A DNA stretch of 64,000 bases, taken from positions 6,555-70,554 of the forward strand of contig JACRNI010000024.1 of NCBI GenBank assembly GCA_016234925.1, given 5' to 3'. The notes under the pieces are model-generated. The model saw only the letters and a list, made by a program, of their open reading frames with translations, had not been told where the DNA came from and did not search any database. Below, one piece after another: positions 28,630 through 53,998 of the stretch. The stretch's first letter is position 1. The number at the start of each line of letters is the position of its first letter. Origin of the DNA: Deltaproteobacteria bacterium. GTDB taxonomy: Bacteria > Desulfobacterota > GWC2-55-46 > UBA9637 > GWC2-42-11. Both the position numbers and the translations under genes were made by a program.

Positions 28630-28675
28630 CCGCACCCTTTAAGGGTGCGTTACGCAGGCTAAAGCCTGCGGCTAC
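28625..28675. repeat. REP/BIME-like element, family B (ggtagccgc-hairpin-hairpin-gcggctac)
   Basis: Six copies: 28625, 31705, 41041, 42499, 44785, 55773. GTAG...CTAC termini; internal hairpins with TTTA loops. Confidence 0.7.
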
Positions 28676-31702: not shown

Positions 31703-31704
31703 TT

Positions 31705-31758
31705 GGTAGCCGCAGGCTTTAGCCTGCGGTATTTACGCAACCTAAAGGTTGCGGCTAC
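31705..31758. repeat. REP/BIME-like element, family B
   Basis: 'ggtagccgcaggctttagcctgcg...cgcaacctaaaggttgcggctac'. Confidence 0.7.
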
Positions 31759-31777
31759 ATTTCAAAATGGAGGTTCA

Positions 31778-32272
31778 ATGAGATTTAAAGGAAAGGCATG
31801 GAAGTTCGGAAAAGATATTGATACTGACCAGATTATTCCTGCAAGGTATTTGAATACATCTGACCCAAAGGAACTGGCAAAGCACTGTATGGAAGACGCA
31901 GACCCTGAATTTGTTAAAAAGATGCAGGCAGGGGATATTATTGTTGCTGACAAGAATTTTGGCTGCGGCTCATCAAGGGAACATGCGCCCATATCAATAA
32001 AGGCAGCAGGCATTTCTTGCGTGATTGCAAAGAGTTTTGCAAGGATATTTTACAGAAATTCATTTAATATGGGACTGCCTATTCTGGAATGTCCAGAGGC
32101 AGTGGATAGTATAAACGAAAGTGATGAGATAGAGGTTGATATTGATACTGGCAAGATTGTGAATCTAACAAAGAATAAAACTTTTAACAGCCAGCCAATC
32201 CCGCCGTTTATGCAGGAACTTATAAATACAGGTGGTTTGATGGAGTGGGTGAAGAAGAAAGTTAAAGCATGA
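31778..32272 (+). CDS. leuD: 3-isopropylmalate dehydratase small subunit
   Basis: '[25 protein letters not shown]'. The ORF-track start at 31703 is an artefact of read-through into the REP element. Confidence 0.9.
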
Positions 32273-38784: not shown

Positions 38785-39561
38785 TTGGCAGAAATAATTA
38801 CATTTGTGACTGTCTTTGCCTTTGGCGCCTCTATCGGCAGTTTTTTAAATGTCTGCATCTATAGAATACCTGAAGGTAAATCTATAATATCCCCTCCATC
38901 GTCTTGTCCAAACTGCAGCAACCCAATCCGATTCTATGACAATATTCCAATAATAAGTTACCTAATACTTTTTGGCAGATGCAGGAATTGCAAGGCGTCT
39001 ATCAGCATCCAATATCCTATTGTTGAGGCATTGACAGGTTTCTTTGCTGTCCTTATTTTATATTATTTTGGATTTACCATTGATGGTTTAATATATTTTT
39101 TATTTATTGCCAGCCTTATTGTAATCACATTCATTGATTTAAAACTTCAAATCATACCTGATATTATAAGTCTGCCGGGAATAATCGTAGGATTTATATG
39201 CTCATCTTTTTTGCTTCCAACAGGTTTTATAAATTCTCTTTTGGGCATATTTCTTGGCGGCGGCAGTCTTTTTCTTGTTGCATACGGCTATAAAAAAGTT
39301 GCAGGCATAGAAGGCATGGGAGGCGGGGATATAAAACTCATTGCAATGGTCGGCGCATTTTTGGGCTGGAAGGCTGTTATAATGACGATATTTGCAGGCT
39401 CGTTTGTTGGCGCAATAATAGGCACGATTGCAATGCTGATTCAAGGGAAAGATACAAAATATGCAATACCATTCGGGCCGTTTCTGGCATTAGGCGCTGC
39501 GCTTTATCTATTCATTGGACAGGATTTTATCAACTGGTATGTAAGGGTAATGTGGAGATGA
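38785..39561 (+). CDS. pilD: prepilin peptidase (A24 family)
   Basis: 'CPNCSNPIRFYDNIPIISYLILFGRCRNC'; catalytic Asp-containing TM core. Confidence 0.9.
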   Translation: MAEIITFVTVFAFGASIGSFLNVCIYRIPEGKSIISPPSSCPNCSNPIRFYDNIPIISYLILFGRCRNCKASISIQYPIVEALTGFFAVLILYYFGFTIDGLIYFLFIASLIVITFIDLKLQIIPDIISLPGIIVGFICSSFLLPTGFINSLLGIFLGGGSLFLVAYGYKKVAGIEGMGGGDIKLIAMVGAFLGWKAVIMTIFAGSFVGAIIGTIAMLIQGKDTKYAIPFGPFLALGAALYLFIGQDFINWYVRVMWR

Positions 39562-41057
39562 CAAAACTTGGTCTTCGTCCAAAGATTATTATAAATATTG
39601 CAATTATCACTGTTGCGGCAATCATGCTAATCGGCATCATAAGCATAAAAATCATTGAAAGGGATGCCTTTGCGAGAAAGATAAAAAATGGCGAGGAGAT
39701 TATAAAATCTATCAGGTTTTTCTATCAAGAGACCGACGGCGTAAATATCAGCAGATTTATTTCTGCAAGGACTGATATTGAAGGTTTAATAATATTAAAT
39801 GAGGATAAAAGGGCAATATTTAATTATGGCAATATAAAGCATGACAGCATTGATAATGTTTTTTACAACACAGAGATTATAAAGAATATTATCAGCAAAG
39901 ACAGAATAATATTTTTAAGCGGCGTTAAGATAGGCGGAAAAACGGCTTCCATAAGGCTTTCATTATCCCTTGCCGATGTCAACATTGACATTGCAAGCAC
40001 GCGAAGATTTATCATTTTTTATGCCTTTCTGGACAGCATACTAATTATAATCTTTGGCGCATTTTTAATTCACAAATCAGTTATAAGACCAATAAAGGCG
40101 CTTGATATAACTGCCAAAGATATAGCAGACGGCAATCTTGATAAAAGGGCGGCGGTTGCTGCTGGGGATGAGATAGGCAGCCTTGCATTGTCATTCAATG
40201 CAATGACAGACAAACTTAAATCAAATATAAATATGCTTGAACGTATGAATAGGGAACTTGTCGCAGCGCAGGATGATTTGCTCCGTTCTGAAAAACTTGC
40301 AACAGTCGGAAGACTCTCTGCGGGTATTGCACATGAAATCGGCAATCCTTTGGGAGCGATATTGGGTTATATAAACATACTTCAAAAAGGTATTGCAGAT
40401 AAGACAGAAGAAAAAGAAATTTTAAATAGGCTTGATAAAGAGACATCCCGAATAAATGTTATAATTAAAGAGTTTCTTGCTCTTTCAAGACCATCTGAAA
40501 GACAGGGAATAATTGGCAGAGGACAATCTGCTGCAAATGTAAATAAAGTTATAGATGAATCTATCAAATCTATCAGGGCAGTTGCATTTAAGGATAATTT
40601 TAAAATTGAATTGAATTTAGAGAATGGGCTGCCTTTTGCCAAGATTGAAGCGGATAAACTTGAACAGGTTCTTATAAATATATTATTAAATGCAAAGGAT
40701 GCGATGCATAATGGCGGCTTAATCAAGATAGAGACAGGGCTTGCAAATATTGCTGCAAAAGAGCCGGTTCACAGAAGGCAGAGCGACATCTCTGACATGG
40801 ATGTTTTATCTCTCAGAAAAGGGAAGGAAATGATTGGCATTAAAATATCTGACACAGGCTGCGGCATAAAAAAAGAGGATATTGGCAAAATATTTGACCC
40901 GTTTTGGACAACAAAAGATGTCGGCAAAGGCACAGGGTTGGGGCTTACTGTTTCACTTGGCATTGTTCAGACATACGGCGGTGATATAAAGGTGAAAAGC
41001 GAGGCAGATAAAGGAACAACATTTGAAATCCTTCTGCCATGTAGCCGCAACCTTTAG
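39552..41057 (+). CDS. sensor histidine kinase with HAMP domain (PilS-like by context)
   Basis: HAMP 'IRPIKALDITAKDIADGNL'; H-box 'GIAHEIGNPLGAI'; 'GTGLGLTVS'. Confidence 0.7.
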   Translation: MEMTKLGLRPKIIINIAIITVAAIMLIGIISIKIIERDAFARKIKNGEEIIKSIRFFYQETDGVNISRFISARTDIEGLIILNEDKRAIFNYGNIKHDSIDNVFYNTEIIKNIISKDRIIFLSGVKIGGKTASIRLSLSLADVNIDIASTRRFIIFYAFLDSILIIIFGAFLIHKSVIRPIKALDITAKDIADGNLDKRAAVAAGDEIGSLALSFNAMTDKLKSNINMLERMNRELVAAQDDLLRSEKLATVGRLSAGIAHEIGNPLGAILGYINILQKGIADKTEEKEILNRLDKETSRINVIIKEFLALSRPSERQGIIGRGQSAANVNKVIDESIKSIRAVAFKDNFKIELNLENGLPFAKIEADKLEQVLINILLNAKDAMHNGGLIKIETGLANIAAKEPVHRRQSDISDMDVLSLRKGKEMIGIKISDTGCGIKKEDIGKIFDPFWTTKDVGKGTGLGLTVSLGIVQTYGGDIKVKSEADKGTTFEILLPCSRNL

Positions 41058-41097
41058 GTTACGTTGTGAATATCGCAGGCTAAAGCCTGCGGCTACC
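41041..41097. repeat. REP/BIME-like element, family B
   Basis: Supplies the stop codon of the kinase gene. Confidence 0.7.
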
Positions 41098-41107
41098 CGT
41101 AAATCTT

Positions 41108-42466
41108 ATGAGAATCTTAATCATTGACGATGAAGAATCCATGCGGCACATGCTCTCTTTGATATTGAAAAAAGAGGGCTATGATGTTGTCTGTGCTGAT
41201 AATGCCAAGCAAGCCCTTAATGTATTGGCTAAACAAGAGTTTGGTTTCATCCTCTGTGATATAAAAATGCCAGAGATGGATGGTCTTGAGTTCTTAAAGT
41301 CTTTACTAGCCCCTTGCCCCTTACCCCTATCCCCTGTAGTTATTATGATGTCCGCCTACGGCACAATTGACACTGCAATTGAGTGCATGAAACTCGGCGC
41401 ATACGACTATATCTCAAAGCCGTTTAAGTCTGATGAGATTATTCTTACATTAAAAAAGGCGGAAGAGCGGGAAAGATTGAGAAGGGAAAATTTAAGGCTT
41501 AAACACAGCATTGCAAGAGAATATAATTTTGAAAATATTATTACAAAAAGCAAAGAGATGCTGGATGTCTTTAATCTTATAAAAAAGGTTTGCGATTATG
41601 ATACAACAGTTTTGATTACAGGGGAGAGCGGCACAGGAAAGGAACTTGTTGCAAGGGCGATACATTACAGCGGCGCAAGAAAGGATAAACCATTTATTGC
41701 TGTAAACTGCGGCGCAATACCTCATGCCCTTATTGAGAGCGAACTATTCGGACATATTAAAGGCGCTTTCACAGATGCAATAAAAACAAAGGCAGGGCTT
41801 TTTGAAGAGGCTGACAAAGGGACGCTCTTTCTTGATGAAATCGGCGAATTGCCGGCTGATATGCAGGTAAAGTTGCTGCGGGTCTTGCAGGAAGGCGAGG
41901 TAAGAAAAGTTGGGGACACTAAATCAATAAAAATAGATGTCAGGGTCATTTCAGCGACAACAAAAAATCTTTTAGAAGAAATAAAAAAAGGCAGTTTTAG
42001 AGAAGACCTTTTTTACCGTTTGAATGTTGTAGAAATCCATCTGCCGTCTTTGAGGGAAAGGCAGGACGATATACCTATTCTTGCAGATTATTTCCTGAAA
42101 AGGCACTGTATGAAATTTAGTAAGAATATAAGCATGATAGATAAAGATGCTATGGATTTACTTTTAAGTTATAAATGGCAGGGAAATGTGCGTGAACTGG
42201 AAAATGTAATAGAGAGGGCAGTGATATTGGAAGATACAGATGTGATAACTCCAAATAGTCTGCCGTTTCTGAAACAGACACCAGACACTAGACACCAGAC
42301 ACTAGACAAGGCAATGCTTTCCATAAAAAAGGCAGAGGAGTCAATTGAAAAAGAACTCATAAAAAAGGCGCTTGATATGACGAGTGGCAACAAGACCCAT
42401 GCGGCAAAACTCCTTGAAATAAGCCATCGGGCGCTTTTGTATAAAATCAAGGAGTATGGGTTATAA
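41108..42466 (+). CDS. pilR: sigma-54-dependent response regulator (PilR-like by context)
   Basis: REC domain; 'GESGTGKE'; 'GAFTDA'; Fis HTH. Short in-frame 'APCPLPLS' segment in the REC domain. Confidence 0.75.
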   Translation: MRILIIDDEESMRHMLSLILKKEGYDVVCADNAKQALNVLAKQEFGFILCDIKMPEMDGLEFLKSLLAPCPLPLSPVVIMMSAYGTIDTAIECMKLGAYDYISKPFKSDEIILTLKKAEERERLRRENLRLKHSIAREYNFENIITKSKEMLDVFNLIKKVCDYDTTVLITGESGTGKELVARAIHYSGARKDKPFIAVNCGAIPHALIESELFGHIKGAFTDAIKTKAGLFEEADKGTLFLDEIGELPADMQVKLLRVLQEGEVRKVGDTKSIKIDVRVISATTKNLLEEIKKGSFREDLFYRLNVVEIHLPSLRERQDDIPILADYFLKRHCMKFSKNISMIDKDAMDLLLSYKWQGNVRELENVIERAVILEDTDVITPNSLPFLKQTPDTRHQTLDKAMLSIKKAEESIEKELIKKALDMTSGNKTHAAKLLEISHRALLYKIKEYGL

Positions 42467-42673: not shown

Positions 42674-42928
42674 ATGAAGGCAGTTAAATTTGCAGTAAGT
42701 ATGCATGAGGAAGATTATAAAGACCTTGAAGCAATAAGGAAGGAAGAAAAATTATCAAGGAGCGGTGTTATTGCAGAGGCTATAAGGCTTTTAAAGGAAT
42801 TCAGGGAAAAAGAGAAACTTGTAAGGCAGTATGAGGAAGGATATAAAAAAATGCCGGAAGAATTGGCGAATATAAAGGCATGGGAAAGGGTTTCTGCGGA
42901 GGTCTTTTCTAAAGGGGAGTGGCAATGA
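42674..42928 (+). CDS. putative antitoxin (MazE/PemI-like) of the downstream MazF
   Basis: 84 aa; overlaps the toxin start. Confidence 0.45.
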   Translation: MKAVKFAVSMHEEDYKDLEAIRKEEKLSRSGVIAEAIRLLKEFREKEKLVRQYEEGYKKMPEELANIKAWERVSAEVFSKGEWQ

Positions 42929-43239
42929 GAAAAGGCGAAGTCTGGTGGGCAGAAATGCCTTCTCCTATTGGAAAGCGGCCTGTGGTGCTGCTTTCAAGAG
43001 ACGAGGCATATGCTGTTAGAAACGCAGTAACGATTGCAGAGGTAACTGCTACTATCCGCAATATACCTGTTGAAGTTCCACTTGGACGGGAAGACGGCTT
43101 GCCAAAAAAATGTGTGGTAAATCTTGACACAATTGCTACTGTGCGTAAAGAGGTTTTAAAAGAAAGGATATGTCTTCTATCAAGTGAAAAGATAGACGAG
43201 ATAAATTCTGCTGTCAAATTTGCATTGGATATTACATAA
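42919..43239 (+). CDS. mazF: MazF/PemK-family endoribonuclease toxin
   Basis: 'RKGEVWWAEMPSPIGKRPVVLLSRDEAY'. Confidence 0.8.
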   Translation: MAMRKGEVWWAEMPSPIGKRPVVLLSRDEAYAVRNAVTIAEVTATIRNIPVEVPLGREDGLPKKCVVNLDTIATVRKEVLKERICLLSSEKIDEINSAVKFALDIT

Positions 43240-43379: not shown

Positions 43380-43484
43380 GTAGTTGCCCAATCCTGCCCC
43401 TGCAGGCTGTAAGCAGGGGTCATTGGGCTGTAGTCGCCGACTTTCAGGTCGGCGGACAAAGCGGACATAAATGTCCGCAACTAC
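43380..43484. repeat. REP/BIME-like element, family I (gtagttgcc-hairpins-gcaactac), in the pilin-operon leader
   Basis: Second copy at 51524..51577. Confidence 0.55.
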
Positions 43485-43536
43485 ATTTTTTAAAAAAACG
43501 CAGATAAATCCGCTAAACTACATTAAAGGATTAGTT

Positions 43537-44097
43537 ATGAACAATCAAAAAGGCATGACACTAATTGAACTCATTATAGTTGTGGTTATTATGGGTGTTA
43601 TGTTTATTATGGCAATACCGACATTTACTTCCACATCACACAGCAAACTTAAATCCGCTGTCAGGGATGTGGCAACAGAATTACAGATGGCAAGGATGAA
43701 GGCAATATATAGGAATGTAGAATTCAGGGTGTTGTTTAGTCCTGGTTCGCCATTTGGCTATAAACTTGAAAAAGGTAATAAGGCATCTGGTTCTGATACA
43801 TGGACAAATGACCATGCTGCAGTTGCAGGTTATAATACAAGTTCTGCATGCAGCAGCAGCAGTCTTAATGCAAATGGTTATTTCTGTATTGAAGGGGTTA
43901 CCATAACAGTTACTGGTTCACTCTCCAGTGGTGCGCAGTTTAATACAAACGGCACATCGTCTTCAGGCAGCATAAGATTCAAAAACCTAAATGATTCAAA
44001 TGACAAATCATACATAAGTTTAAGTGATACTACAGGAAGAGTAAATATAGTAGACTGTACAAAGGTGACGGGTGATACTATATGCGGTGCGTTTTAA
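43537..44097 (+). CDS. type IV minor pilin, FimT/GspH-like
   Basis: Prepilin motif 'QKG|MTLIELIIV' with E at +5; GspH-like 'LKSAVRDVATELQMARMKAI'. Confidence 0.7.
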   Translation: MNNQKGMTLIELIIVVVIMGVMFIMAIPTFTSTSHSKLKSAVRDVATELQMARMKAIYRNVEFRVLFSPGSPFGYKLEKGNKASGSDTWTNDHAAVAGYNTSSACSSSSLNANGYFCIEGVTITVTGSLSSGAQFNTNGTSSSGSIRFKNLNDSNDKSYISLSDTTGRVNIVDCTKVTGDTICGAF

Positions 44098-44108
44098 AAT
44101 AATTATGA

Positions 44109-44765
44109 ATGGATGATGCTATGAAAGACATTTCAAACAATAAAGGCTTTACCCCGTTACACCCAGAAAATCTCACCAAAGTGCTACGGGGTAAATGGCA
44201 TGTAGGACAGGGTGTAACGGGGTTTACCTTCGTAGAGGTTCTTATAGCAATTGCAATCCTTGCCATTGCAGTTATAGGTCTTGCAAGCATGTCTGGCAAT
44301 GCGTATAGAGGCGTTGATTCTGCCAAGAAACTTTCAGCAGCATCAAACCTTGCCGAGTCAAAACTAGAGGCATTGAGGGCAATGGCATATGCAAAACTTG
44401 AGATAACAGGCTTATCAAGTGAATCTGACAGCGGCGGCATTACAAGGACATGCACTCCTCCATACGCCTGCTCTGGCAATACTGCATTATCAAGCATATC
44501 CAGCGCAAACGGCAGCATTACAAGGGCATGCCCTGCATCAGGAACAGGATGCACTACAGTTTATACATGTATACCAACTACAGCAGAACCTCCTATAAAC
44601 AGTGTTACTTACACATGGTTTTGGAAGACTATGATAGTTAATGCTGATGGAAATGGCGAATGTTCATCATCAGGCGATGGATTAAAAATAGTGGATATGT
44701 ATGTTCAATGGACAGACACATTTGGAACAAGGACAGCGCAACTGCAAACATTGAGGGCGAAGTAG
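44109..44765 (+). CDS. type IV minor pilin, PilV-like
   Basis: 'G|FTFVEVLIAIAILAIAVIGL'. Confidence 0.65.
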   Translation: MDDAMKDISNNKGFTPLHPENLTKVLRGKWHVGQGVTGFTFVEVLIAIAILAIAVIGLASMSGNAYRGVDSAKKLSAASNLAESKLEALRAMAYAKLEITGLSSESDSGGITRTCTPPYACSGNTALSSISSANGSITRACPASGTGCTTVYTCIPTTAEPPINSVTYTWFWKTMIVNADGNGECSSSGDGLKIVDMYVQWTDTFGTRTAQLQTLRAK

Positions 44766-44784: not shown

Positions 44785-44838
44785 GTAGCCGCAACCTTTA
44801 GGTTGCGTAAAATACCGCAGGCTAAAGCCTGCGGCTAC
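44785..44838. repeat. REP/BIME-like element, family B
   Basis: Between the PilV-like gene and the giant pilin gene. Confidence 0.7.
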
Positions 44839-44855
44839 AATAGAGGGCAGATACA

Positions 44856-47800
44856 ATGACTATAATAACAACCAAAAAAGGCTTTACAATCGTTGAACTC
44901 ATGATTGCCCTTGCTCTTACAGGTATTATTCTTGCAGCGGTCTATGGCGTTTATATTGCATTTTACAAGACATCAGGCTCGCAGGATTTAATGATAGAGG
45001 CGCAGCAGAATGCAAAGGCAGGCATTGCTGTTATTGAAAGGGATTTGATAAATGCAGGACTTAATGCAGGCACGGCAGATGTTTTTCCGTATAAAACAGC
45101 AACATGGGTAACAACATCCTATTCAATGGTATTTAGATACAGAGACCCGCGAGAAACACTTGATACAACAAAGGCAAAAAAGGAAGTTTGGTATGGTCTG
45201 GTAGATAAAAATGGCGATCAGGTTGTTACAGCTACAGGTGCAGGAACATGCAGCGCCAGCGATGAGCCTTGTCATCTTGTCCGAAAGATTTGTTATGATA
45301 CAGATAATAATGGGGTTTTTGATAATAGTTGCACAGGCAATGAAAAAGTTGTTGCTTATGTTGATAATCTTACATTCACCTATTATGATGGTAATGGCGG
45401 ACTAATAGCCGATACTAGTATTGATGGAAATACTGCTGCTGAACAGGACAACCGAAACCTCATAAGGCTCGTCAAAGTTTCTTTAACCACAAAGACAAGC
45501 GCTAAACTGCCGACAAAGGATGACTATTCAACAGTTACTTTAACAACTCAGGTAAATTTAAGAAACATGGGCGTAACAGGAACGGCTTCAGATACAACAG
45601 CTCCTGACGAGCCGACAAGTGTAGCAGTCAGAGACCCGCAAATCTGCGGCAAGTTGAGTGTCAACTGGACAAAGTCAAATGCAACAGATGTCGCAGGCTA
45701 TAAGATATATTACGGCACAGCAGCAGGCGCATATACAGGCGTAGTCTCTGTTTCGCTTTCAAGCCTTACAGAGTCAAGCGGCACATATACATATACAATC
45801 CAGCCGACAAATCAAGACGGCACTAATGCGCTTCAATATTCAAAATCCGACGGCACAAGCACCACTATGTACTATATAGCAATGAAGGCTTATGATAATT
45901 CTGGTAATTTAAGCGCAAGTTATTCAAATGAGGTGTCAGGCAATCCAACACCAAGCAGCTCAACTCATGGCAGCGGCAGTAATGACACAACCATAAACCC
46001 TGTCAAACCAGCAGCGCCAACTGCATTTACAGGGGCAAATGGACCTGCTAATTATCAGGTAAGTCTTTCATGGACAGGCTCAGGCGCAACTGATTTAGCA
46101 GGCTATAGAATTTATAGAGACACAGCAGCATTTACAACATATCCAATAGATGCATCAAAACAGATTGCATGTGAAACAGGGTGCGCAAATGTAGTTGGCA
46201 AGAGCGCCACCACCTTTACTGATACATCAGCAGGGCTTATAGGCTGTCAGGTCTATTATTATGCAATTGCCGCTGTGAACTGCGATGGAACGCTTGTAAC
46301 AAATGATGCTGGCGATGATGATACAAAGAGATATATCTCAACTAATTATGCAGTAACATACGGCGATGGCGCTGAAAGCGGGGCAGATTCACCTGACGGC
46401 TCTGACACTGCGCCGCCTGACACTGTTGCGCCATCTGCGCCATCAGGTTTTGGTGTCAGGGCAGGCTGGAAAAGGGTTGCAGTATCCCTTACACAGCCGC
46501 CTGATACTGATTTAGACCAAACCTGCGTTTATGCCAATCAGGGCGCCGCTTATCCAACACTAGATACAGGTGCGTCAAAAGAAAGCGGATGTTATCAGGT
46601 TGCTGCCGGCGCCCGTGCCTATGGACCGCCTTCAGATATTTCAACAGACGGTATATTTACAGTTTCTGAACTTGCCGCAAGCACATCAAAGTCTTACTGG
46701 CACAATTCTATGCTAATCTCTACTGACACGCCTTCTCTCCTTGAGACAGGAACATACTCATATGGGGCTGTTGCATTTGACAAATGCGGCAATGCCTCTA
46801 ATGTTGCCCAAGCACAAGACAGCACCACACTCTGCGGCGAAGACCCTATAGGAAAACCCCCTGCTCCAACCGGGCCTCTTGCAAGCGCATGTTCTTCACC
46901 TGTTACCATTACATGGACAGCAGTTCCAAGTATTGCGGGCGGCACAAATTCTGACCTTGCAGGCTATAGGATATTCAGAAGCGCAAATTCTTCGGACTGG
47001 AGCGGGGCGGCTTTACTCAATCCTCCTCCTGATGCACCTTTCTGGGGGACAAGTTATAATGATACGGGCATTGCTGACGGCGGAGAATATTATTACAGGA
47101 TAACATCAACAGACTGTCCTTATGAAAAGGGCGATGATACTGGCGGCATAACCCCAACAATAGCCCAGATGACGAATCATATGTCAACTGGCTTTCTTAA
47201 TTCTGCGCAAGTGGGCCCTGTTTATACAGGCAAGATTGACAGGGATGAAAAGACAAGCGCAGTTCAGGACAGCCATCTTGAGGTATTGACAGGCAAGGAT
47301 GCTAAAATAGGCAGTTCAGAGCCTACTGCATACGATTATTATCACAACACAGTTACCTTGTATTTTGAAAACACAAGTTCAGGCACAGTTATAAGCGGAA
47401 AATCACTTGTAATAACAGGCATAGACCAGATGAGTTGGAATAATCCAAGCGCATGCCTTAAAAAGATTACAATAGGAGGCTCTCCGTCAACAGCAGGGAC
47501 ATCTCAAGAAGTTGTATGGGATAATGCTCTAGTCTGCACAAACCCAACAGGCGTAATTGATGGACTTATAGATAAAGAGATAATGGCTTCTGACAGGCAT
47601 GTGCCAATCACATTTGAATGGACAAAAACAGACGGCACAATTGATAATACCTCTGATATGCGTAATTCCAATGTTCGTGTGAAATTAAAGGTTGAGAATA
47701 ATTCAACAACAGGCACTGACTCATGCAGCGCCTATCTCACATATTCAGGTGGAGATGCGCTAATTTATGTGCCAAGTGGTCCAACTATATATACCCCTTC

Positions 47801-49316
47801 GCAGGATAAACCAAGTTCTTTAACAACACCTTATGAGGCAACAAGCGGTAATAATCCATCAAACAATCCATCAGTTATAAGTGTTGCAGGCGGGAATAAT
47901 GTAAATGTTACTATAACAACAGCAGACGGAACATACGATGGCGTTACTGTGGCCGTTGACAGTGTTGCAGTTGCATCCCCAGCAAATGAATCCGCAAATG
48001 TTGTTTTATATTACATAACCACTGACCAGAGTGTAACACAGGCGCCTCAATACACTGGCGCAAATTATACTGCAATAAATATGTTTAAGACTGCTGCAAA
48101 TACATATAGTCTATTAAGCGGCGCTGCAAGTTGCGCAACAACACCAACTGCAACACATGCAAGCGACAGACGAATCCCTGCGCAGGCAAGCGCAAAGAGG
48201 GTTTGGTATTTTATCGTTGTTAAAGATACAGAAGGCAATTTTGACAGGGCGCCGGAGGTGGTTGATACCAGCGCATATTACACAGCATATACATATGACC
48301 AAGGGGCATTTGCTGTTTGCGATGTAACACCTGCTGCGCCGACAAGCCTTACCGCTAGTCTAGTAACAGATGATGTTACGCTTTCATGGACAGCATCGAC
48401 CACATACAGCGATGGCGGGTGTAAGAGCGCAAGCGATTCCTTCAACTATAGGATATATAGAGGAGGCGCACAGATTGGGGCAGATCAGGCAGGCGCTGCT
48501 ATATGTAACGCAGAAAATATTTGCACTTATGCAGATAACAACCTTGCAAACGGCATATATTCCTACTATGTAAAGGCAAAGAATTCCTGTGCAACAGAGG
48601 AAAGATTGAGCAGCGCATCTAATACTGCTGTGAAGTGCGTTGGCAGCGCCGGACAGGTGTTGTCTGTAGATAAAACCTCAATGCTTGCAAACGATAGTTT
48701 TACCGTAACAGTTAATGATTGCAGTCTGGCAGGGGGTGCAACGCCAGATACTGTAAATAATGTTACAACAAGTTCAAGCAGCAGAGATACTGATATATTC
48801 TCAATTGTAGATAATGGAAATCTAGGGGAATTTACGCAGACAATAACCACCACCACCACACTCCCTGCATCAGATAGTCTGACAGAACTTTATACCAATA
48901 CCTCTGATACCATAACTGTTACATTGGCAGGGGCCACAGGTTCACCCAAGACAATAACTGTTTCAGCTGACCCGTGCAACAATACGCCGAGCGCGCCTGT
49001 ATTAAATTCATCAGTCGTCGTCTCAGGTCAGAACATGACAATTTCGTGGACAGGTGTAACCACTAATACCGATAGCACAGCCATTACTGACCTTGCAGGA
49101 TACAAGATATATGAAAAGTGCGTGAACGGCAGCCAGAACTGCACCGGCGGGACTGACTGGTTTGTAAGGGCAACCGCAGGTTCAACAGCAACATCATATA
49201 CACTCAGCGCGGATTACGGCAACTTACAGCAGAGGACATACTACTTCAAGATTACGGCATATGACAGTTGTTCAACACCTAAAGAAAGCGGATACTCTAA
49301 TACAGTTAATGAATGA
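44856..49316 (+). CDS. giant (1486 aa) PilW-like type IV minor pilin with Fn3-like, Thr/Ser-rich adhesin extension
   Basis: 'KKG|FTIVELMIALALTGIIL'; repeated Fn3-like 'LSWT...DLAGYRIYR' signatures at least five times; no internal stops. Confidence 0.7.
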   Translation: MTIITTKKGFTIVELMIALALTGIILAAVYGVYIAFYKTSGSQDLMIEAQQNAKAGIAVIERDLINAGLNAGTADVFPYKTATWVTTSYSMVFRYRDPRETLDTTKAKKEVWYGLVDKNGDQVVTATGAGTCSASDEPCHLVRKICYDTDNNGVFDNSCTGNEKVVAYVDNLTFTYYDGNGGLIADTSIDGNTAAEQDNRNLIRLVKVSLTTKTSAKLPTKDDYSTVTLTTQVNLRNMGVTGTASDTTAPDEPTSVAVRDPQICGKLSVNWTKSNATDVAGYKIYYGTAAGAYTGVVSVSLSSLTESSGTYTYTIQPTNQDGTNALQYSKSDGTSTTMYYIAMKAYDNSGNLSASYSNEVSGNPTPSSSTHGSGSNDTTINPVKPAAPTAFTGANGPANYQVSLSWTGSGATDLAGYRIYRDTAAFTTYPIDASKQIACETGCANVVGKSATTFTDTSAGLIGCQVYYYAIAAVNCDGTLVTNDAGDDDTKRYISTNYAVTYGDGAESGADSPDGSDTAPPDTVAPSAPSGFGVRAGWKRVAVSLTQPPDTDLDQTCVYANQGAAYPTLDTGASKESGCYQVAAGARAYGPPSDISTDGIFTVSELAASTSKSYWHNSMLISTDTPSLLETGTYSYGAVAFDKCGNASNVAQAQDSTTLCGEDPIGKPPAPTGPLASACSSPVTITWTAVPSIAGGTNSDLAGYRIFRSANSSDWSGAALLNPPPDAPFWGTSYNDTGIADGGEYYYRITSTDCPYEKGDDTGGITPTIAQMTNHMSTGFLNSAQVGPVYTGKIDRDEKTSAVQDSHLEVLTGKDAKIGSSEPTAYDYYHNTVTLYFENTSSGTVISGKSLVITGIDQMSWNNPSACLKKITIGGSPSTAGTSQEVVWDNALVCTNPTGVIDGLIDKEIMASDRHVPITFEWTKTDGTIDNTSDMRNSNVRVKLKVENNSTTGTDSCSAYLTYSGGDALIYVPSGPTIYTPSQDKPSSLTTPYEATSGNNPSNNPSVISVAGGNNVNVTITTADGTYDGVTVAVDSVAVASPANESANVVLYYITTDQSVTQAPQYTGANYTAINMFKTAANTYSLLSGAASCATTPTATHASDRRIPAQASAKRVWYFIVVKDTEGNFDRAPEVVDTSAYYTAYTYDQGAFAVCDVTPAAPTSLTASLVTDDVTLSWTASTTYSDGGCKSASDSFNYRIYRGGAQIGADQAGAAICNAENICTYADNNLANGIYSYYVKAKNSCATEERLSSASNTAVKCVGSAGQVLSVDKTSMLANDSFTVTVNDCSLAGGATPDTVNNVTTSSSSRDTDIFSIVDNGNLGEFTQTITTTTTLPASDSLTELYTNTSDTITVTLAGATGSPKTITVSADPCNNTPSAPVLNSSVVVSGQNMTISWTGVTTNTDSTAITDLAGYKIYEKCVNGSQNCTGGTDWFVRATAGSTATSYTLSADYGNLQQRTYYFKITAYDSCSTPKESGYSNTVNE

Positions 49317-49415: not shown

Positions 49416-49916
49416 ATGAAAAAACTTAAACTTTATCTTGATACCTCTGTGCTAAACTTTTTATTTGCTGATGATGCGCCTGAATTTAAGAAGGTTACTA
49501 GAGAGTTTTTTGAGATGGTCAATGCCGGGAAAAACTTTGAGGTTTATATTTCAGATATTGTAATAAATGAAATAACCAAAACGAGCAATACAAGGAAAAA
49601 AAGCCGGCTCTTATCCATTATTGATAATTATCATATTGTAAGGCTGTCTAATGATAAGGATTTTGAAGTAAGTAAACTTGCGGAAATCTATTTAAGCAAA
49701 GGTATCATACCAAAGGTAAAGATAGAAGACGCGCTGCATATTGCCTATGCTGTAGTTTTTGAAATGGATGTGCTTTTAAGTTGGAATTTTAAACATCTTG
49801 CAAATATAAAAAAGGAGAGGGAAGTGCTGTTGACAAACATGGAGAATGGTTATAATTATCCGATAAGAATTGTAACACCGATGGAGGTTGATTATGAAGA
49901 CAACGAAAATTTCTAA
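49416..49916 (+). CDS. PIN-domain protein (VapC-like)
   Basis: 'LYLDTSVLNF', acidic residues, 'LSWNFKHL'. Confidence 0.7.
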   Translation: MKKLKLYLDTSVLNFLFADDAPEFKKVTREFFEMVNAGKNFEVYISDIVINEITKTSNTRKKSRLLSIIDNYHIVRLSNDKDFEVSKLAEIYLSKGIIPKVKIEDALHIAYAVVFEMDVLLSWNFKHLANIKKEREVLLTNMENGYNYPIRIVTPMEVDYEDNENF

Positions 49917-50222: not shown

Positions 50223-51518
50223 ATGAATAATAAAATTAAAAACCAAAACGGCATTGAATTAAAGCCTTCATCGCCCCTCACCTTAATCCTCTCCCCAAAG
50301 GGGAGAGGGCGGGGTGAGGGGGGCTTTGCCCTTGTTGTAACCCTTCTTCTGATGGTCTCAATATCTCTGATAGGGCTTCTTGCGCTTATGAACGCATCAA
50401 CAGAGACCCTTATTGCAAGGAATGAGAAAGAGCAGAAAATTGCATTCCAACTTGCAGAGGCAGGGCTTAACGAGACGTATGCAAGGCTGCATGTTACAGG
50501 AGGTAATTATATAGGGGAGCCGTCAGGTACTACAACAAGGACTGGCGATGCTGTAGTGGGTAGTGGCATCGCGGCAGGCAGTAGTAGTACAAGCGGAGGT
50601 TTAAATACAGCAAGTGCATCAACAGGTCAATATAGTGTTGTAATAACATATTTGGCAGAGAATTCAACTGATGCATTTTGTAACGGCGGCACATGGGATG
50701 TCCCTACTGATACTGTATATACTGTAGACACCGCCGCCCAATGCACTGGCGCGACAGCAGTTTTGTTTGGTCATGACTTTGGCTTTCCTTATAATATGAG
50801 CCCAAGACCGCCCTTAACAGGCAGAAATCCTGTTTATAAGATTACATCCACTGGGACATATGGCAATACAAACGTTTCATTATATTCGTATATCCCGTCA
50901 ATCGGCCTTAATATTGACCCGGAGGCTGCTGTGTATTCTACTGGTGGTTTGGATGTTAATGGCAACGATACAATCACTGGTGGGGCAAAGTATTGCACCA
51001 CCTATGATGCATCAGGTACTAATACTATATCTCCTGCCGCTACTCCGATTACATCTAATTGTCTTGTTATGGATACATTTATTGGTTATTCTAAATCTGA
51101 ATTATGGAGTATGGCTGATGTGAAGGTAGTTGGCGACGGCGGCGCTGGACTGAAAACTACAGTAACAGACCCTGCGAATGCGGATAAGATTATATTTGTT
51201 GATAATGATGCTGCTGCTGGACCAAGCAGTAACACGACTGCTTCAAATGCGAATATAAATACCAATCAATCCGGAAGCGGTATTTTGATTGTTACCGGCG
51301 ACTTAGCTGTTGGCGGAGGTTTTACATGGACAGGCTTGATATATGTATTCGGCACATTGACTACGAGTGGAAATGTTACGGTAACCGGCGCTGTGGTAGC
51401 AGGAGGCACAGAGGTCACACTGAATGGCACTGTAACTGTAACCTATGACCAGGATGTCCTTAATAATCTGGGGAAAAAGAACAGCACCTCCAGCCTTATC
51501 AGGTGGAGCAGGCAGTAG
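50223..51518 (+). CDS. PilX-like type IV pilus minor pilin with repeat-derived N-terminal leader
   Basis: PilX_N-like 'GFALVVTLLLMVSISLIGLLALMNASTETLIARNE'. The leader 'PLTLILSPKGRGRGEGG' is encoded by the family D repeat. Confidence 0.6.
   Translation: MNNKIKNQNGIELKPSSPLTLILSPKGRGRGEGGFALVVTLLLMVSISLIGLLALMNASTETLIARNEKEQKIAFQLAEAGLNETYARLHVTGGNYIGEPSGTTTRTGDAVVGSGIAAGSSSTSGGLNTASASTGQYSVVITYLAENSTDAFCNGGTWDVPTDTVYTVDTAAQCTGATAVLFGHDFGFPYNMSPRPPLTGRNPVYKITSTGTYGNTNVSLYSYIPSIGLNIDPEAAVYSTGGLDVNGNDTITGGAKYCTTYDASGTNTISPAATPITSNCLVMDTFIGYSKSELWSMADVKVVGDGGAGLKTTVTDPANADKIIFVDNDAAAGPSSNTTASNANINTNQSGSGILIVTGDLAVGGGFTWTGLIYVFGTLTTSGNVTVTGAVVAGGTEVTLNGTVTVTYDQDVLNNLGKKNSTSSLIRWSRQ
50273..50322. 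repeat. family D G-rich palindromic element, inside the CDS 5' end
   Basis: Same as 35127..35202. Confidence 0.6.
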
Positions 51519-51658: not shown

Positions 51659-52735
51659 CTACTGCCTTACATTCATAAACATCAATATCCCTATTATCCC
51701 GAACATAAAATTTGCCGACCATGCCGCGAAAAACGGCGGGATTGCTCCGATGTATCCAAGTGACGCTGTTACGGCAAATACAATCCAGTAACTAAAGCCT
51801 ATTATAACGCTCAAAGCGATGCCCATTGCAATGCCGCTGTGCCTGCCTGTTTTTAACGCAAATGGTATGCCGAGTATCACCATTATGATGTTTATAACAG
51901 GAAACGCTATCTTTCCATGAAGGTCAACAATATATCTTGTGGCGTCATAGCCTTCCAAAGACAGTTTTGCGATGTAATCTTTAAGTTCAGTGAAACTCAT
52001 TTCATCTGCAATCTTTTCTGTGATTTGAAGTTCTTCAGGGTTTTCATCTATTGGCGCTGTTCCATTTTTAACAGCAGATATTTTTATAGAACCGTTCCGA
52101 AACTGCCGTTTTGTCCCGTTTGTTATCTGCCATTTTCCATCTAACCATTTTGCCTCTTCCGCATCTATCCTTGACAGCACATTAAAATCCTTGTCAATCT
52201 CATAGATTGTTAAGCCGTGTATTATGCCTTTTTTAGAATCAAGGTGGCTGATGCTGTATATGTTGTCATCGCCCCTGTACCACATTTTATTTTGCTTGAA
52301 AGATGCCGCTTGTTTTTTTCCGTCTATTCTGATTTTTTTAATAGATTCAACTTGTTTTTTTGCAGGGGGGACAATATATTCGTCTATAACAAATGACATT
52401 GCGCTTATAACCAGAGATGCGAGCATGATTGGGAATGTGATTTTTAGGACGCTTATGCCGCCTGCCTTCATCGCAGTAATCTCAACATTGCGGGAAAGTA
52501 TGCCGAGGGACAATAAGGTCGCAAGAAGGACTGCAACAGGGGTTGTCTGATACATGATAAACGGTATCTTGTACAGGAAAAATTTAAACCCTTCGGACAT
52601 GGATGCGTTATTTTCCATGAGGTCGTCTATCTTTTCAAAGAAATCTATCAAGAGATATAACGATACTATTGTTATAATGCAGAGAAAGAATATAAAGAGG
52701 AATTCCTTTAGTATATGTTTGTTTATGATTTTCAT
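51659..52735 (-). CDS. lptG: LPS export ABC permease, LptG-like (YjgP/YjgQ family)
   Basis: 'MKIINKHILKEFLFIFF'; 6 TM with a periplasmic beta-jellyroll insert. Confidence 0.75.
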   Translation of the reverse strand: MKIINKHILKEFLFIFFLCIITIVSLYLLIDFFEKIDDLMENNASMSEGFKFFLYKIPFIMYQTTPVAVLLATLLSLGILSRNVEITAMKAGGISVLKITFPIMLASLVISAMSFVIDEYIVPPAKKQVESIKKIRIDGKKQAASFKQNKMWYRGDDNIYSISHLDSKKGIIHGLTIYEIDKDFNVLSRIDAEEAKWLDGKWQITNGTKRQFRNGSIKISAVKNGTAPIDENPEELQITEKIADEMSFTELKDYIAKLSLEGYDATRYIVDLHGKIAFPVINIIMVILGIPFALKTGRHSGIAMGIALSVIIGFSYWIVFAVTASLGYIGAIPPFFAAWSANFMFGIIGILMFMNVRQ

Positions 52736-52755
52736 CTGAAAAACCCCGTCAAAAA

Positions 52756-52810
52756 TGTAGGGGTCGGATTTATCCGACCTGATATGCGGGTTTGATAAAT
52801 CAAACCCCTA
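52756..52810. repeat. REP/BIME-like element, family F
   Basis: See 38618..38709. Confidence 0.6.
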
Positions 52811-52816
52811 CAATCT

Positions 52817-53998
52817 TCACTTTGAAAATATCCTTTTGAACAGACCAATAATGCTGTTAAAAAATCCTCCAAGCCAGACAAATAATTTTACAGGCGATTC
52901 TTTGCCTGCCTTATAAAAGATGTACAATCCGCAGACACCCATTATGATGTTTGAACCCCATACAGCGAATATCGGATTTATTTTTCCGTTTTCGCCAAAA
53001 GACTCAAATGCTGTTGACAGGACATAGTAGAGCAGCATGACAACGAGGGCTATTATAAAACCCCTGTATCTGCTTGTCCGGACATGCTGGATGGCAAGCG
53101 GGACGCCTAGAAGTCCGAATACAAATACTGCCGCAGGCAGGGCAGCTCTTTTGTGCATATCTATAATATAAGGAGACGGATTTTTTCCTGCCTTTTTTAC
53201 TTCGTTTATCTTTTTTGCAAGTTCCATTACTGTAAGTTCTCTGTTTGACCTGTTTTTATCAGGATTTTTAATGTCAGCCTGTTTCAATCTTAAATTTATG
53301 TCATATGTAGAAAATGTCATATGCGTGTATTTATCAGATTGTTTTCCTGTTTTATGGAGCGTGCCGTTTTGCAGTCTAAGTGTTACTGTCATTGATTCAG
53401 GGTCTACTATAAAGACACCCTTGTTGGCGGTTATAACATCAGATATTTCATCCTGTTTTTCTTCTGACACCATTACGCCGTTTAAGGTGTCTTCGCCTGC
53501 GGCAATATGGTCAGCATACAGGACAATGCCGTCAAATGTGTCATTAAATGTCTTTTCCTTTATACCAGTAGATATTTTTGTTCTCGCCACATCATACAGG
53601 AGTTTTTTTGCAGAAAGGTTAGCCCATGGAAATGCAAAGAGCGTAAGATAGAGGGATAATAAAAATGCGATTGACGCCATCACAATCACAGGCCGTGTCA
53701 ACCTGTATAGATTTATGCCTGCTGTCTTTATTGCAGTGATTTCGCTGTCGCCTGAGAGCCTGTTGAATGCAATCAAGACAGATAAAAGAAACGACAGGGG
53801 TATTACATAGATTAGAAACGAGGGCATTAAAAAGAATAAGAATTTTAGGACTATGAATATGCCTACGCCGTGGTTTACAACAAGTTCAACTAATTTGAGG
53901 AGTTTGCTTAAAAGCAATGTTACTGACAATACACCGCTGCTTATAATAAAAGGGACAGCAAGTTCTTTGAATATGTATGAATCTAAAATGCGTCTCAT
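52817..53998 (-). CDS. lptF: LPS export ABC permease, LptF-like (YjgP/YjgQ family)
   Basis: 'MRRILDSYIFKELAVPF'. Confidence 0.75.
   Translation of the reverse strand: MRRILDSYIFKELAVPFIISSGVLSVTLLLSKLLKLVELVVNHGVGIFIVLKFLFFLMPSFLIYVIPLSFLLSVLIAFNRLSGDSEITAIKTAGINLYRLTRPVIVMASIAFLLSLYLTLFAFPWANLSAKKLLYDVARTKISTGIKEKTFNDTFDGIVLYADHIAAGEDTLNGVMVSEEKQDEISDVITANKGVFIVDPESMTVTLRLQNGTLHKTGKQSDKYTHMTFSTYDINLRLKQADIKNPDKNRSNRELTVMELAKKINEVKKAGKNPSPYIIDMHKRAALPAAVFVFGLLGVPLAIQHVRTSRYRGFIIALVVMLLYYVLSTAFESFGENGKINPIFAVWGSNIIMGVCGLYIFYKAGKESPVKLFVWLGGFFNSIIGLFKRIFSK

Follow-up and report, generated by a model that had tools for sequence, protein, structure and literature searches.

Modular pilins are defined by an N-terminal pilin module that is joined through a short linker to one or more C-terminal domains that are not pilus-specific (Raynaud et al. 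2021, PMC8179133). Among the pilin-Fn3 architectures in the 2021 InterPro survey, 12 proteins had one Fn3 domain, one had two and two had three (PMC8179133). The modular pilins PilB and PilC of Streptococcus sanguinis carry a vWA module and a lectin module, respectively (PMC8179133; Shahin et al. 2023, PMC9934059). Canonical J-type minor pilins of type II secretion systems and type IVa pili (GspJ, XcpW, EpsJ, PilW) are about 190-280 aa long and have no C-terminal extension. The gene of the large tip adhesin PilY1 normally adjoins pilW and pilX. PilY1 itself is a non-pilin protein with a C-terminal beta-propeller that docks on the K subunit via its last beta-strand (PMC13533445). Other pilus classes and subunit types include proteins of about 500-600 aa that combine a pilin domain with extra beta-rich domains, namely CofB/TcpB (type IVb), ComZ (Thermus) and TadG/CpaL (Tad), whose tip location and part in both initiation and the binding of ligands are outlined in PMC8179133 and PMC13533445.

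Within the analysed window, a stretch of 64,000 nucleotides, we describe a gene for a minor pilin of 1486 aa that represents a new, very large example of this known modular design and does not amount to a system of a new type (Table 1). The encoded protein is identical to MBI5892450.1, which belongs to a Deltaproteobacteria MAG. Its reading frame contains no internal stops, in agreement with the single intact ORF proposed in the initial annotation, and a Shine-Dalgarno-like GAGGG lies 9 nt upstream of the ATG. As read from the sequence, the N-terminus consists of MTIITTKKG followed by FTIVELMIALALTGIIL; Gly occupies position -1, Phe position +1 and Glu position +5 (KKG/FTIVE). This corresponds to the class III signal of type IV prepilins (PF07963, TIGR02532, IPR012902), i.e., a short basic leader ending in Gly, a hydrophobic stretch of ~20 residues and Glu at +5. 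Both N-methylation models match aa 7-30 above their cut-offs (28.0 bits versus 21.2 for Pfam N_methyl, PF07963; 24.7 versus 16.3 for TIGR02532), and the motif occurs in 25 of the 27 family members, so the signal proposed earlier is upheld. The prepilin peptidase PilD encoded nearby is the expected processing enzyme, and the leader is probably removed by it.

Table 1. Features of the minor pilin locus and domain layout of the giant pilin (window positions; aa, residues of the encoded protein).
Feature	Position	Strand	Evidence or remark
Prepilin peptidase PilD (A24)	38785..39561	+	Pfam A24_N_bact 1.6e-34, Peptidase_A24 7e-20; syntenic in related loci
PilS/PilR-like pair: HAMP-HisKA histidine kinase and sigma54-dependent response regulator	39552..42466	+	Pfam
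H-type minor pilin (GspH/FimT-like)	43471..44097	+	Glu5 present; Pfam N_methyl, GspH; TIGR01708 7.7e-11, below cut-off
I-type minor pilin (PilV/GspI-like)	44109..44765	+	Glu5 present; N_methyl; TIGR02523 PilV 1.5e-10 and gspI 4.3e-6, both below cut-off
Modular minor pilin gene, complete	44856..49316	+	1486 aa, ATG start; identical to NCBI MBI5892450.1
Leader peptide MTIITTKKG, aa 1-9	44856..44882	+	Class III signal; predicted PilD cut after Gly9
Mature GspJ/PilW-type pilin module, aa 10-242	44883..45581	+	Helix 12-69 plus beta-sheet head; Glu5 present
D1, Fn3, aa 246-365	45591..45950	+	Motif at aa 278; modelled beta-sandwich; hhalign to D9 97.5%; Foldseek to tandem FnIII arrays E 1.5e-16
D2, Fn3, aa 384-505	46005..46370	+	Motif at aa 413; hhalign to D4 98.2%; model
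D3, divergent Fn3-like beta-sandwich, aa 522-665	46419..46850	+	Model; hhalign to D1 weak, 85.8%
D4, Fn3, aa 666-762	46851..47141	+	Motif at aa 700; hhalign to D2, D7 and D9 >97%
Linker, aa 763-830	47142..47345	+	Conserved, low-confidence; motif IDRDEK...H(R/L)EVLTG from family consensus
D5 (aa 831-955) and D6 (aa 960-1152), family-specific beta-sandwiches	47346..48311	+	All-beta in model
D7, Fn3, aa 1155-1264	48318..48647	+	hhalign to other Fn3 modules; motif variant at aa 1196
D8, Ig-like beta-sandwich, aa 1265-1375	48648..48980	+	Model B; T/S-rich (35%)
D9, C-terminal Fn3, aa 1376-1486	48981..49313	+	Motif at aa 1412; hhalign; model B
PIN-domain gene between giant gene and pilX	49416..49916	+	Pfam PIN 2e-6
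K-type minor pilin (PilX_N domain), 431 aa	50223..51518	+	No Glu5 (G/FALVV); Pfam PilX_N 1.3e-9

The giant gene is the third in a conserved H-I-J-K set and its product has Glu5, whereas the K-type subunit encoded next lacks this residue; by this synteny the product is assigned as the J-type subunit. In the predicted structure, the globular head has the GspJ-type fold. None of the 27 family members, nor the window protein itself, matches Pfam PilW or T2SSJ. The gspJ model (TIGR01711) matches 13 of the 27 and PRK10557 23, with best E-values (4.9e-5 and 1.2e-8) far weaker than the cut-offs imply; the score of the window protein with PRK10557 is 22.5 bits, where the cut-off is 120. Since the giant pilin reaches no cut-off of the curated PilW/GspJ sequence models (Pfam PilW/T2SSJ, TIGR01711), the label PilW-like, under which it was initially annotated, holds by fold and synteny but not by these models. 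The annotated gene order (FimT/GspH-like, PilV-like, giant, PIN, PilX-like) agrees with the Pfam and TIGR assignments.

Homologues that are full-length number about 28, with 30-71% identity, and all members of the family come from uncultured organisms. We compared 34 related loci over +/-10 kb, found in MAGs of uncultured Deltaproteobacteria/Thermodesulfobacteriota, Nitrospirota and Zymogenaceae. Most of those with enough flanking sequence share the order pilD, histidine kinase, sigma54 response regulator, gspH/fimT-like, pilV, giant gene, pilX, pilMNOPQ, and the H-I-giant-K order is common to more than 20 loci. Among the related loci, the kinase/regulator pair is kept upstream of the minor pilin genes and the PilX_N gene is always the next pilus gene after the giant one; the PIN gene is absent from all of them and lies outside the conserved operon. 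Some close relatives carry in the equivalent operon slot a stand-alone pilin of 237-241 aa (48-51% identity, 96-99% coverage), which stops 10 residues past a conserved LRNMG(V). The pilin module is thus an autonomous unit, and the Fn3 stalk is an accessory graft that was probably lost secondarily in these relatives.

Beyond the pilin module (aa 1-242), a T/S/P linker (239-249) leads into the Fn3/Ig-like array of residues 246-1486, and the protein is therefore a modular pilin in the sense of PMC8179133. Its structure was modelled in two halves with moderate confidence (pLDDT 79.5 and 74.2); just 37 of 790 residues in one half and 93 of 732 in the other fall below 50, including residues 25-71 of model B in the linker at aa 763-830. 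Profile-profile comparison by hhalign between sub-alignments of the family showed that D1, D2, D4, D7 and D9 are mutually homologous, with probabilities from 73.5% (D1/D7) to 99.6% (D7/D9) and nine out of ten pairs at 90% or higher. The motif D[LV]AGY[RK]I[YF] recurs at aa 278, 413, 700 and 1412 and, in the variant form FNYRIYR, at 1196. The five or more Fn3-type signatures that had been read from the sequence are thereby confirmed as five clear modules. D3, which begins with a conserved 'RAGWKRVALSLTQP' and shows high conservation in the family, is weakly related to them, whereas D5/D6 and D8 have no sequence similarity to the Fn3 modules in the same comparisons. A phmmer search with aa 761-1150 against 1.84 billion representatives retrieved 58 proteins, and in the near-full-length ones (about 1150-1940 aa) the D5-D6 region occupies an equal relative position.

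The window protein itself reaches no Pfam Fn3 threshold; fn3 is matched in 9 and Ig_RIMBP2 in 14 of the 27 family members, and the family profile matches the Fn3 domain of chitinase A1 (1k85, E=8e-5). The modules are assigned to Fn3 through these family members, the profile match to 1k85 and the predicted structure, the family combining a profile match with a seven-strand beta-sandwich as in PF00041. Because the modules fall below Pfam thresholds, InterPro-based censuses undercount modular pilins. All non-pilin matches of both half-models in the fold search were Fn3/Ig-like sandwiches, so that the domain search and segment modelling suggested by the initial annotation yield a pilin head followed by sandwiches of these types. 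The composition (T 13.5%, A 10.5%, S 10.4%, G 8.3%) agrees with the T/S-rich character noted earlier, but the stretches described as low-complexity are mostly modelled as folded beta-sandwiches with short T/S/P linkers between them. Identity within the family is higher for the membrane-proximal domains D1-D4 (47-52%) than for the distal domains (30-44%), a pattern that would also agree with a conserved role in structure or interaction as opposed to adhesion alone. Many conserved cysteines suggest disulfide stabilisation of the stalk.

Like PilB and PilC of S. sanguinis, the giant pilin has a class III signal, a small pilin module, a short linker and a non-pilin C-terminal graft; all are minor pilins for which a tip complex with an I-type partner is formed or predicted and the grafted module is the effector. 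Unlike them, it comes from a diderm whose type IVa system comprises PilMNOPQ and the complete H-I-J-K set, and it is specifically the J-type subunit that carries the graft, which spans about 1240 aa and nine domains instead of one or two. The giant pilin, known here from sequence and models, also lacks a recognised binding domain such as vWA or lectin. CofB/TcpB, ComZ and TadG/CpaL are much smaller and show no detectable sequence similarity to it. CofB is a trimer. ComZ and CpaL have their extra domains as insertions, with the C-terminus returning into the pilin sheet, whereas here they form a C-terminal graft. The tip adhesins PilY1/PilC and MshQ (MSHA pili) are of similar mass, and by analogy the giant pilin probably shares the place of PilY1 at the pilus tip and its general role in adhesion.

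We propose, with a probability of about 0.6, that the protein is a modular J-type minor pilin that displays an Fn3 stalk at the tip of a type IVa pilus as an adhesin and/or spacer. PilD would take off the 9-residue leader, and the N-terminal 230-odd residues would form a complete GspJ/PilW-type pilin. Together with the GspH/FimT-like, PilV/GspI-like and PilX/GspK-like (without Glu5) subunits it would build the canonical four-subunit complex, which would prime the pilus and remain at its tip. The about 1240 residues that follow would fold into approximately nine beta-sandwiches in a row (five Fn3, one degenerate Fn3, a central family-specific pair and one Ig-like), projecting as a stalk of ~30 nm, as estimated from typical Fn3 dimensions, that may attach to surfaces, polymers or other cells. 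The tip location is suggested by the J-type assignment. Neither a ligand-binding site nor a recognised lectin/adhesin domain turned up in the protein, and the adhesin role is therefore put forward by analogy.

Several other explanations were weighed. The initial annotation noted that a separate pilY1 is missing, and this is borne out: the pilus cluster of the window has none, nor do more than 25 related loci, in which pilX and then pilM come directly after the giant gene. This absence, the PilY1-like size of ~150 kDa and the need of tip complexes for a terminal beta-strand, supplied by PilY1 or in cis (Ellison et al., PMC13533445), would suit a functional PilW-PilY1 fusion in which the extension replaces the priming and adhesin/mechanosensor roles of PilY1, covalently on J instead of docked on K. 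Such a fusion, also favoured in the initial annotation, is nevertheless unlikely. The comparison with the C-terminal propeller of PilY1 was negative, as neither half-model contains a beta-propeller or a vWA domain, and the PilY1/PilC family (PF05567/IPR008707) has no Pfam match in the window protein or the 27 members. Operons with the short orthologue also have no detectable pilY1, so that its absence from the operon is independent of the extension and priming in this clade would need neither; a pilY1 may lie elsewhere in the genome. In addition, it is K rather than J that the PilY1 strand completes (PMC13533445), and the local PilX-like proteins, which are large (400-450 aa), may close their sheet by themselves, in cis. 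Identity with a PilY1/PilC tip adhesin itself was rejected, given that only Fn3/Ig folds lie beyond the head, no propeller is present and the protein is itself a pilin.

It is quite improbable that the protein stays out of an extracellular pilus, either fixed in the inner membrane by its pilin helix or as part of a short endopilus in the periplasm. The Fn3 string would then work in the periplasm or envelope; its conceivable roles include those of a ruler, a plug or a scaffold for the PilMNOPQ machine, and that of a cargo which is pushed through the secretin. Strong conservation of D1-D4 would be expected for contact with conserved machine components, ~150 kDa is a problem for secretin passage, and loss of the extension from a retained operon in one lineage marks it as accessory. 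However, in every type IV filament studied the J-type minor pilins belong to the tip (PMC9934059, PMC7541494), and PilY1 and MshQ, which have a comparable mass, reach the outside together with the tip (PMC13533445). Moreover, an extended nine-domain stalk of ~30 nm is estimated to be about as long as the usual periplasmic width or longer, and extracellular proteins typically have Fn3 arrays and many conserved cysteines of this kind. An enzyme or glycan-processing array, another suggestion of the initial annotation, is very improbable. A few members carry extra modules (GH85_C in one, an RGI_lyase beta-sheet domain in three, an InhA-like MAM in one) that also occur in glycoside hydrolases, and several fold matches are accessory domains of carbohydrate-active enzymes; these modules, however, are non-catalytic sandwiches, and Pfam, NCBIfam, PDB profile and fold searches found no catalytic domain in the window protein. 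Catalysis is thus nearly refuted, while glycan binding is possible. For the proposed O-glycosylation link, the window gave no support: Pfam (E<=1e-4) detects TPR repeats alone in the TMTC-like genes (21081-25101), which are located 20 kb upstream, beyond genes for ubiquinone-type biosynthesis, aconitase and pyruvate kinase. Finally, a misassembly of two genes, which the initial annotation had raised as grounds for rejecting its reading, has a practically negligible chance. The source is a MAG and two gene pairs downstream look frameshift-split (54130-55714; 56494-59179), but dozens of independent contigs, which come from various samples and phyla, carry collinear full-length homologues of 1374-1936 aa, and this rules it out.

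Returning to the Fn3-stalked tip pilin, a speculative extension, which we hold only tentatively, is that this uncultured diderm clade has a PilY1-free type IVa pilus with the J pilin as tip effector. The nine-domain, titin-like string might then act as a covalent, extensible, force-bearing tether (adhesin plus shock absorber or mechanosensor) during retraction, with D5-D6 and IDRDEK...HxEVLTG as a new ligand-binding unit.

Modular pilins have been put forward as the way in which simple type IV filaments acquire new functions, and the characterised ones are small and come from a monoderm pathogen. The giant pilin family takes the design to an extreme scale, about 150 kDa with nine grafted domains, on the canonical J subunit of a type IVa machine in diderms. 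The bacteria concerned are widespread in groundwater and sediment, and their operon lacks pilY1. Sister lineages with the equivalent operon and no stalk provide a natural control. If the location at the tip is confirmed, a covalent pilin carrier and the non-covalent PilY1 would be interchangeable ways to arm a type IVa pilus, and the family would make it tractable to ask how the secretin lets very large tip cargo through and how such cargo withstands the force of retraction.

Every feature that the initial annotation described in the giant gene, which encodes the 1486-aa minor pilin, was recovered on reading the sequence. The ORF is intact, with 1486 codons, an ATG start, zero internal stops and a GAGGG ribosome-binding motif 9 nt upstream. 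Its product begins MTIITTKKG/FTIVELMIALALTGIIL (the slash marks the prepilin cleavage site), with Gly at -1, Phe at +1 and Glu at +5, and is matched above the curated cut-offs by both Pfam N_methyl (28.0 versus 21.2 bits) and TIGR02532 (24.7 versus 16.3 bits). The D[LV]AGY[RK]I[YF] signature is found four times (residues 278, 413, 700 and 1412), and residue 1196 has the variant FNYRIYR. An identical protein from a Deltaproteobacteria MAG is present at NCBI (MBI5892450.1), where it is annotated merely as a prepilin-type N-terminal cleavage/methylation domain protein. Word-indexed searching of 5.8 billion proteins identified about 28 collinear full-length homologues of 1374–1936 aa (30–71% identity), which align end to end, with numerous positions invariantly occupied by Cys, Trp, Gly or Asp. 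Among GTDB species, sampled at one genome each, 34 related loci were found, most of them in uncultured groundwater 'Deltaproteobacteria'/Thermodesulfobacteriota, two in Nitrospirota and one in Candidatus Zymogenaceae. These full-length collinear homologues and related loci rule out the misassembly of two genes as the origin of the ORF; the giant gene is real and represents a conserved gene family. Literature searches found no paper on this family or on any giant J-type minor pilin.

Apart from the N-terminal methylation motif, Pfam and NCBIfam give only pilin matches below threshold for the giant protein, and no named domain is assigned to the extension (aa 246-1486), hereafter also the stalk. 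The protein was modelled with AlphaFold2 from the family alignment as two overlapping halves, giving pLDDT 79.5 for aa 1-790 (below 50 at 37 of 790 residues) and 74.2 for aa 755-1486 (below 50 at 93 of 732). In these models, residues 12-69 form a long pilin helix, a beta-sheet head extends up to residue ~235, and the remainder is all beta, divided into nine beta-sandwich domains, D1-D9 (see the table). The T/S/G/N-rich stretches initially regarded as low-complexity are present but are mostly modelled as folded domains. Profile–profile comparison of family sub-alignments demonstrated that D1, D2, D4, D7 and D9 are mutually homologous (probability 73.5–99.6%, at least 90% for nine of the ten pairs) and that D3 is weakly related to this group, and detected no sequence relation of D5, D6 and D8 to the Fn3 modules. 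Since the Pfam Fn3 threshold is not reached anywhere in the window protein, the Fn3 assignment needs other evidence; the fn3 model matches nine of 27 family members and Ig_RIMBP2 matches 14 of 27, and the family profile matches the Fn3 domain of Bacillus chitinase A1 (1k85) with an E-value of 8e-5.

Coordinates of the giant protein domains, of features in the window and of the stand-alone pilins in sister MAGs
Feature	Location	Strand	Remark
Giant gene	window 44856-49316	+	
D1	giant aa 246-365		
D2	giant aa 384-505		
D3	giant aa 522-665		
D4	giant aa 666-762		
Linker	giant aa 763-830; window 47142-47345		conserved, poorly modelled; family motif IDRDEK(C)...H(R/L)EVLTG(V)D
D5	giant aa 831-955		
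D6	giant aa 960-1152		
D7	giant aa 1155-1264		
D8	giant aa 1265-1375		
D9	giant aa 1376-1486		
PIN-domain gene	window 49416-49916		between giant gene and pilX
PilX-like K-type pilin	window 50223-51518		431 aa
MazF/PemK-type toxin gene	window 42919-43239		upstream of minor pilin genes
Two LptF/LptG-like permease genes	window 51659-53998	-	read from sequence
Palindrome CCGCAGGCTAAAGCCTGCGG	window 28652-28671, 31710-31729, 41073-41092, 44815-44834		four copies
'TMTC-like' genes	window 21081-25101		two proteins of ~650-690 aa, C-terminal TPR arrays
199-aa TPR protein	window, within 21081-25697		after 'TMTC-like' genes
Putative split alpha-glucan phosphorylase-like gene	window 54130-55086 and 54995-55714		by eye
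Putative split PEP carboxylase gene	window 56494-57690 and 57677-59179		by eye
Short form	L038 10001-10726		sister MAG
Short form	L039 528-1253		sister MAG
Short form	L040 2639-3352		sister MAG

Only 58 proteins matched the region aa 761-1150 in a phmmer search of 1.84 billion cluster representatives; those of near-full length (~1150-1940 aa) hold it at the same relative position, and the rest are shorter fragments. Judged by sequence, the central region is specific to its family. Most family members possess two Cys in the linker between D4 and D5, none of which is found in the window protein. This linker has pLDDT below 50 in the model and may bind a metal or ligand, or else be an element that depends on a partner. 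Family members are on average 47–52% identical to the window protein in D1-D4 and 30–44% in D5-D9, and some of them have extra accessory sandwiches of the carbohydrate-enzyme type. Both observations fit a speculative division of the stalk into a conserved proximal shaft and a more variable distal end with a putative binding function.

Sequence models do not establish the class of the pilin module. Pfam PilW and T2SSJ have zero matches in the window protein or any of 27 family members. NCBIfam leans to the J-type, with matches to PRK10557 (from its length, presumably the PpdB model) in 23 of the 27 members, to ComGF in 14 and to gspJ in 13, all of them far below the cut-offs. When the family pilin-module profile was compared by hhalign with single E. 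coli GspG/H/I/J/K and PpdA/B/C/YgdB sequences, only the N-terminal helix was matched, and the head alone matched nothing; phmmer searches of PDB sequences with the pilin module and the PilX-like protein gave N-terminal helix matches or none. The class is instead provided by gene order and by the completeness of the four-pilin set. The giant gene is preceded by genes for a GspH/FimT-like pilin (Pfam GspH) and then a PilV/GspI-like pilin, and the next pilus gene after it encodes a PilX_N protein whose mature N-terminus (G/FALVV) is devoid of Glu5, the hallmark of the K-type cap subunit. These four are the only prepilins in the window, and on this basis the pilin module of the giant protein is J-type, of the GspJ/PilW class. 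The PilX-like protein, which has 400-450 aa in relatives, has a C-terminal half rich in G/T/V repeats (…GSGILIVTGDLAVGGGFTWTGLIYVFGTLTTSGNVTVTGAVVAGG…), whose sequence suggests a beta-solenoid similar to the one in Thermus ComZ; beyond PilX_N, the protein matches nothing in Pfam or among PDB sequences.

Among the related loci with enough flanking sequence, most share the gene order pilD, HAMP histidine kinase, sigma54 response regulator, gspH-like, pilV-like and giant gene, followed by pilX-like, pilM, pilN, pilO, pilP and secretin. The one secretin whose domains were read, from locus L038 of a sister MAG, has AMIN domains, as type IVa PilQ typically does. A PilX_N gene also directly follows the giant gene in the distant loci of Nitrospirota and Zymogenaceae. 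No pilY1-sized or PilY1-like gene was found in any related cluster within flanks of +/-10 kb. One Nitrospirota locus (L026 14354-22451) has the giant gene followed by two PilX_N genes, and between these are genes for a DUF4034 protein and a 297-aa Kelch beta-propeller protein, a propeller beside pilus tip genes that is not of the PilY1 type. In the window, opposite-strand LptF/LptG-like genes, not pilMNOPQ, lie downstream of pilX, and therefore the pilus cluster is rearranged or split in this genome. Both the MazF gene and the PIN gene are absent from every related locus; a small ORF upstream of the former (region 42674-43239) may be its antitoxin.

The 20-bp REP-like palindrome occurs in four copies in the window, versus 0 expected by chance. 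Three copies are located between ORFs, and the fourth, at 31710, overlaps ORF 31703-32272 at its predicted TTG start. The kinase and regulator genes have one copy between them, and another lies directly upstream of the giant gene, inside a larger hairpin (44785-44838; RNA MFE -35.6 kcal/mol, z -4.5). A regulatory hairpin specific to the giant gene was rejected, because the palindrome is one of four dispersed REP-like copies and the hairpin has no T-run. Elsewhere in the window, two adjacent gene pairs (54130-55714 and 56494-59179) look like single genes split by frameshifts and may represent MAG sequencing errors or pseudogenes; in the PEP carboxylase pair, the VITAHPTE and GYSDSCKDGG signatures are in separate overlapping ORFs. 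ORFs 9638-11926 (762 aa) and 18020-19204 (394 aa) have zero Pfam matches at E<=0.01.

Using aa 1-245 as a query, we identified three stand-alone pilins of 237-241 aa (48–51% identity, 96–99% query coverage), termed short forms. They take the operon position that the giant gene holds elsewhere, in the order pilD, gspH-like, pilV-like, 241-aa pilin, pilX-like (~400 aa), small HTH gene and pilMNOPQ. The alignment of short form P0036 covers giant residues 6-242, and this short form terminates 10 residues past the invariant LRNMG, exactly where the T/S/P linker and D1 start in the giant protein. The operon proteins encoded alongside this short form are the closest relatives of their window counterparts (PilD 72%, PilV 51%, PilX 43%). 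In a neighbour-joining tree built from the pilin module, all three short forms cluster with the window protein and family members P0002 and P0003 with 100% bootstraps and are monophyletic in 90% of bootstraps, and every deeper branch is a giant. The most straightforward reading is an ancestral stalk in the family and a single loss in the short-form lineage; it is tentative because the tree is built from ~240 positions by distance methods with a midpoint root. Whether or not this reading holds, the pilin module is autonomous and does the basic J-subunit job without need of the stalk, and the short forms are natural 'stalk-deleted' controls.

The H-I-J-K minor pilins form a complex that primes pilus assembly and stays at the filament tip, with K as the cap (PMC9934059; cryo-ET, PMC7541494). 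For docking, PilC/PilY1 contributes its final beta-strand to the K subunit; in GspK-type subunits the corresponding strand is provided in cis (PMC13533445). In the giant protein, PilD would cleave off the 9-residue leader, the J-type module would enter the priming complex with the three neighbour pilins, and pilus extension would carry the nine-domain stalk out on the tip, where it could act as an adhesin and/or a spacer. At the usual 3.5-4 nm per Fn3 domain, the stalk length is estimated at ~30 nm. A fused pilin-adhesin at the pilus tip, as originally proposed, is retained as a reasonable and the best explanation. Fold evidence speaks against its more specific versions, a PilW fused to a PilY1-like adhesin and an enzyme array, and both were rejected. 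The giant protein contains no beta-propeller, vWA, lectin or catalytic fold anywhere; it has no PilY1 features, and pilY1 is missing from the short-form operons as well. A stalk that takes over the whole role of PilY1, serving as a force-bearing and extensible tether at the tip and carrying a new binding unit, is an unlikely further possibility.

The suggested O-glycosylation link to the 'TMTC-like' genes found no support either. Pfam at E<=1e-4 detects only TPR repeats in their products and nothing in the N-terminal halves, and they lie 20 kb from the giant gene, with chorismate lyase, UbiA, UbiD, aconitase, pyruvate kinase and other genes between them and the pilus cluster. At the short-form locus L038, a 677-aa TPR protein adjoins a 148-aa ComP_DUS-type pilin; no homologue of this TPR protein was detected in the window, and it thus lends no support to the glycosylation idea.

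Pilins with grafted modules have been described previously, including the tip-located PilB and PilC of S. sanguinis with vWA and lectin modules (PMC8179133, PMC9934059), and a 2021 InterPro survey of pilin-Fn3 architectures listed 12 proteins with one Fn3, one with two and two with three (PMC8179133). The giant protein follows the same modular-pilin logic as S. sanguinis PilB and PilC; conserved and very large, it exemplifies a design principle already known, and no new mechanism is required. The family is new in degree, namely in the size of the giant protein (~150 kDa, nine grafted domains), in its carrier, a canonical J subunit of a diderm type IVa machine encoded in an operon without pilY1, and in the existence of natural stalk-less sister forms.
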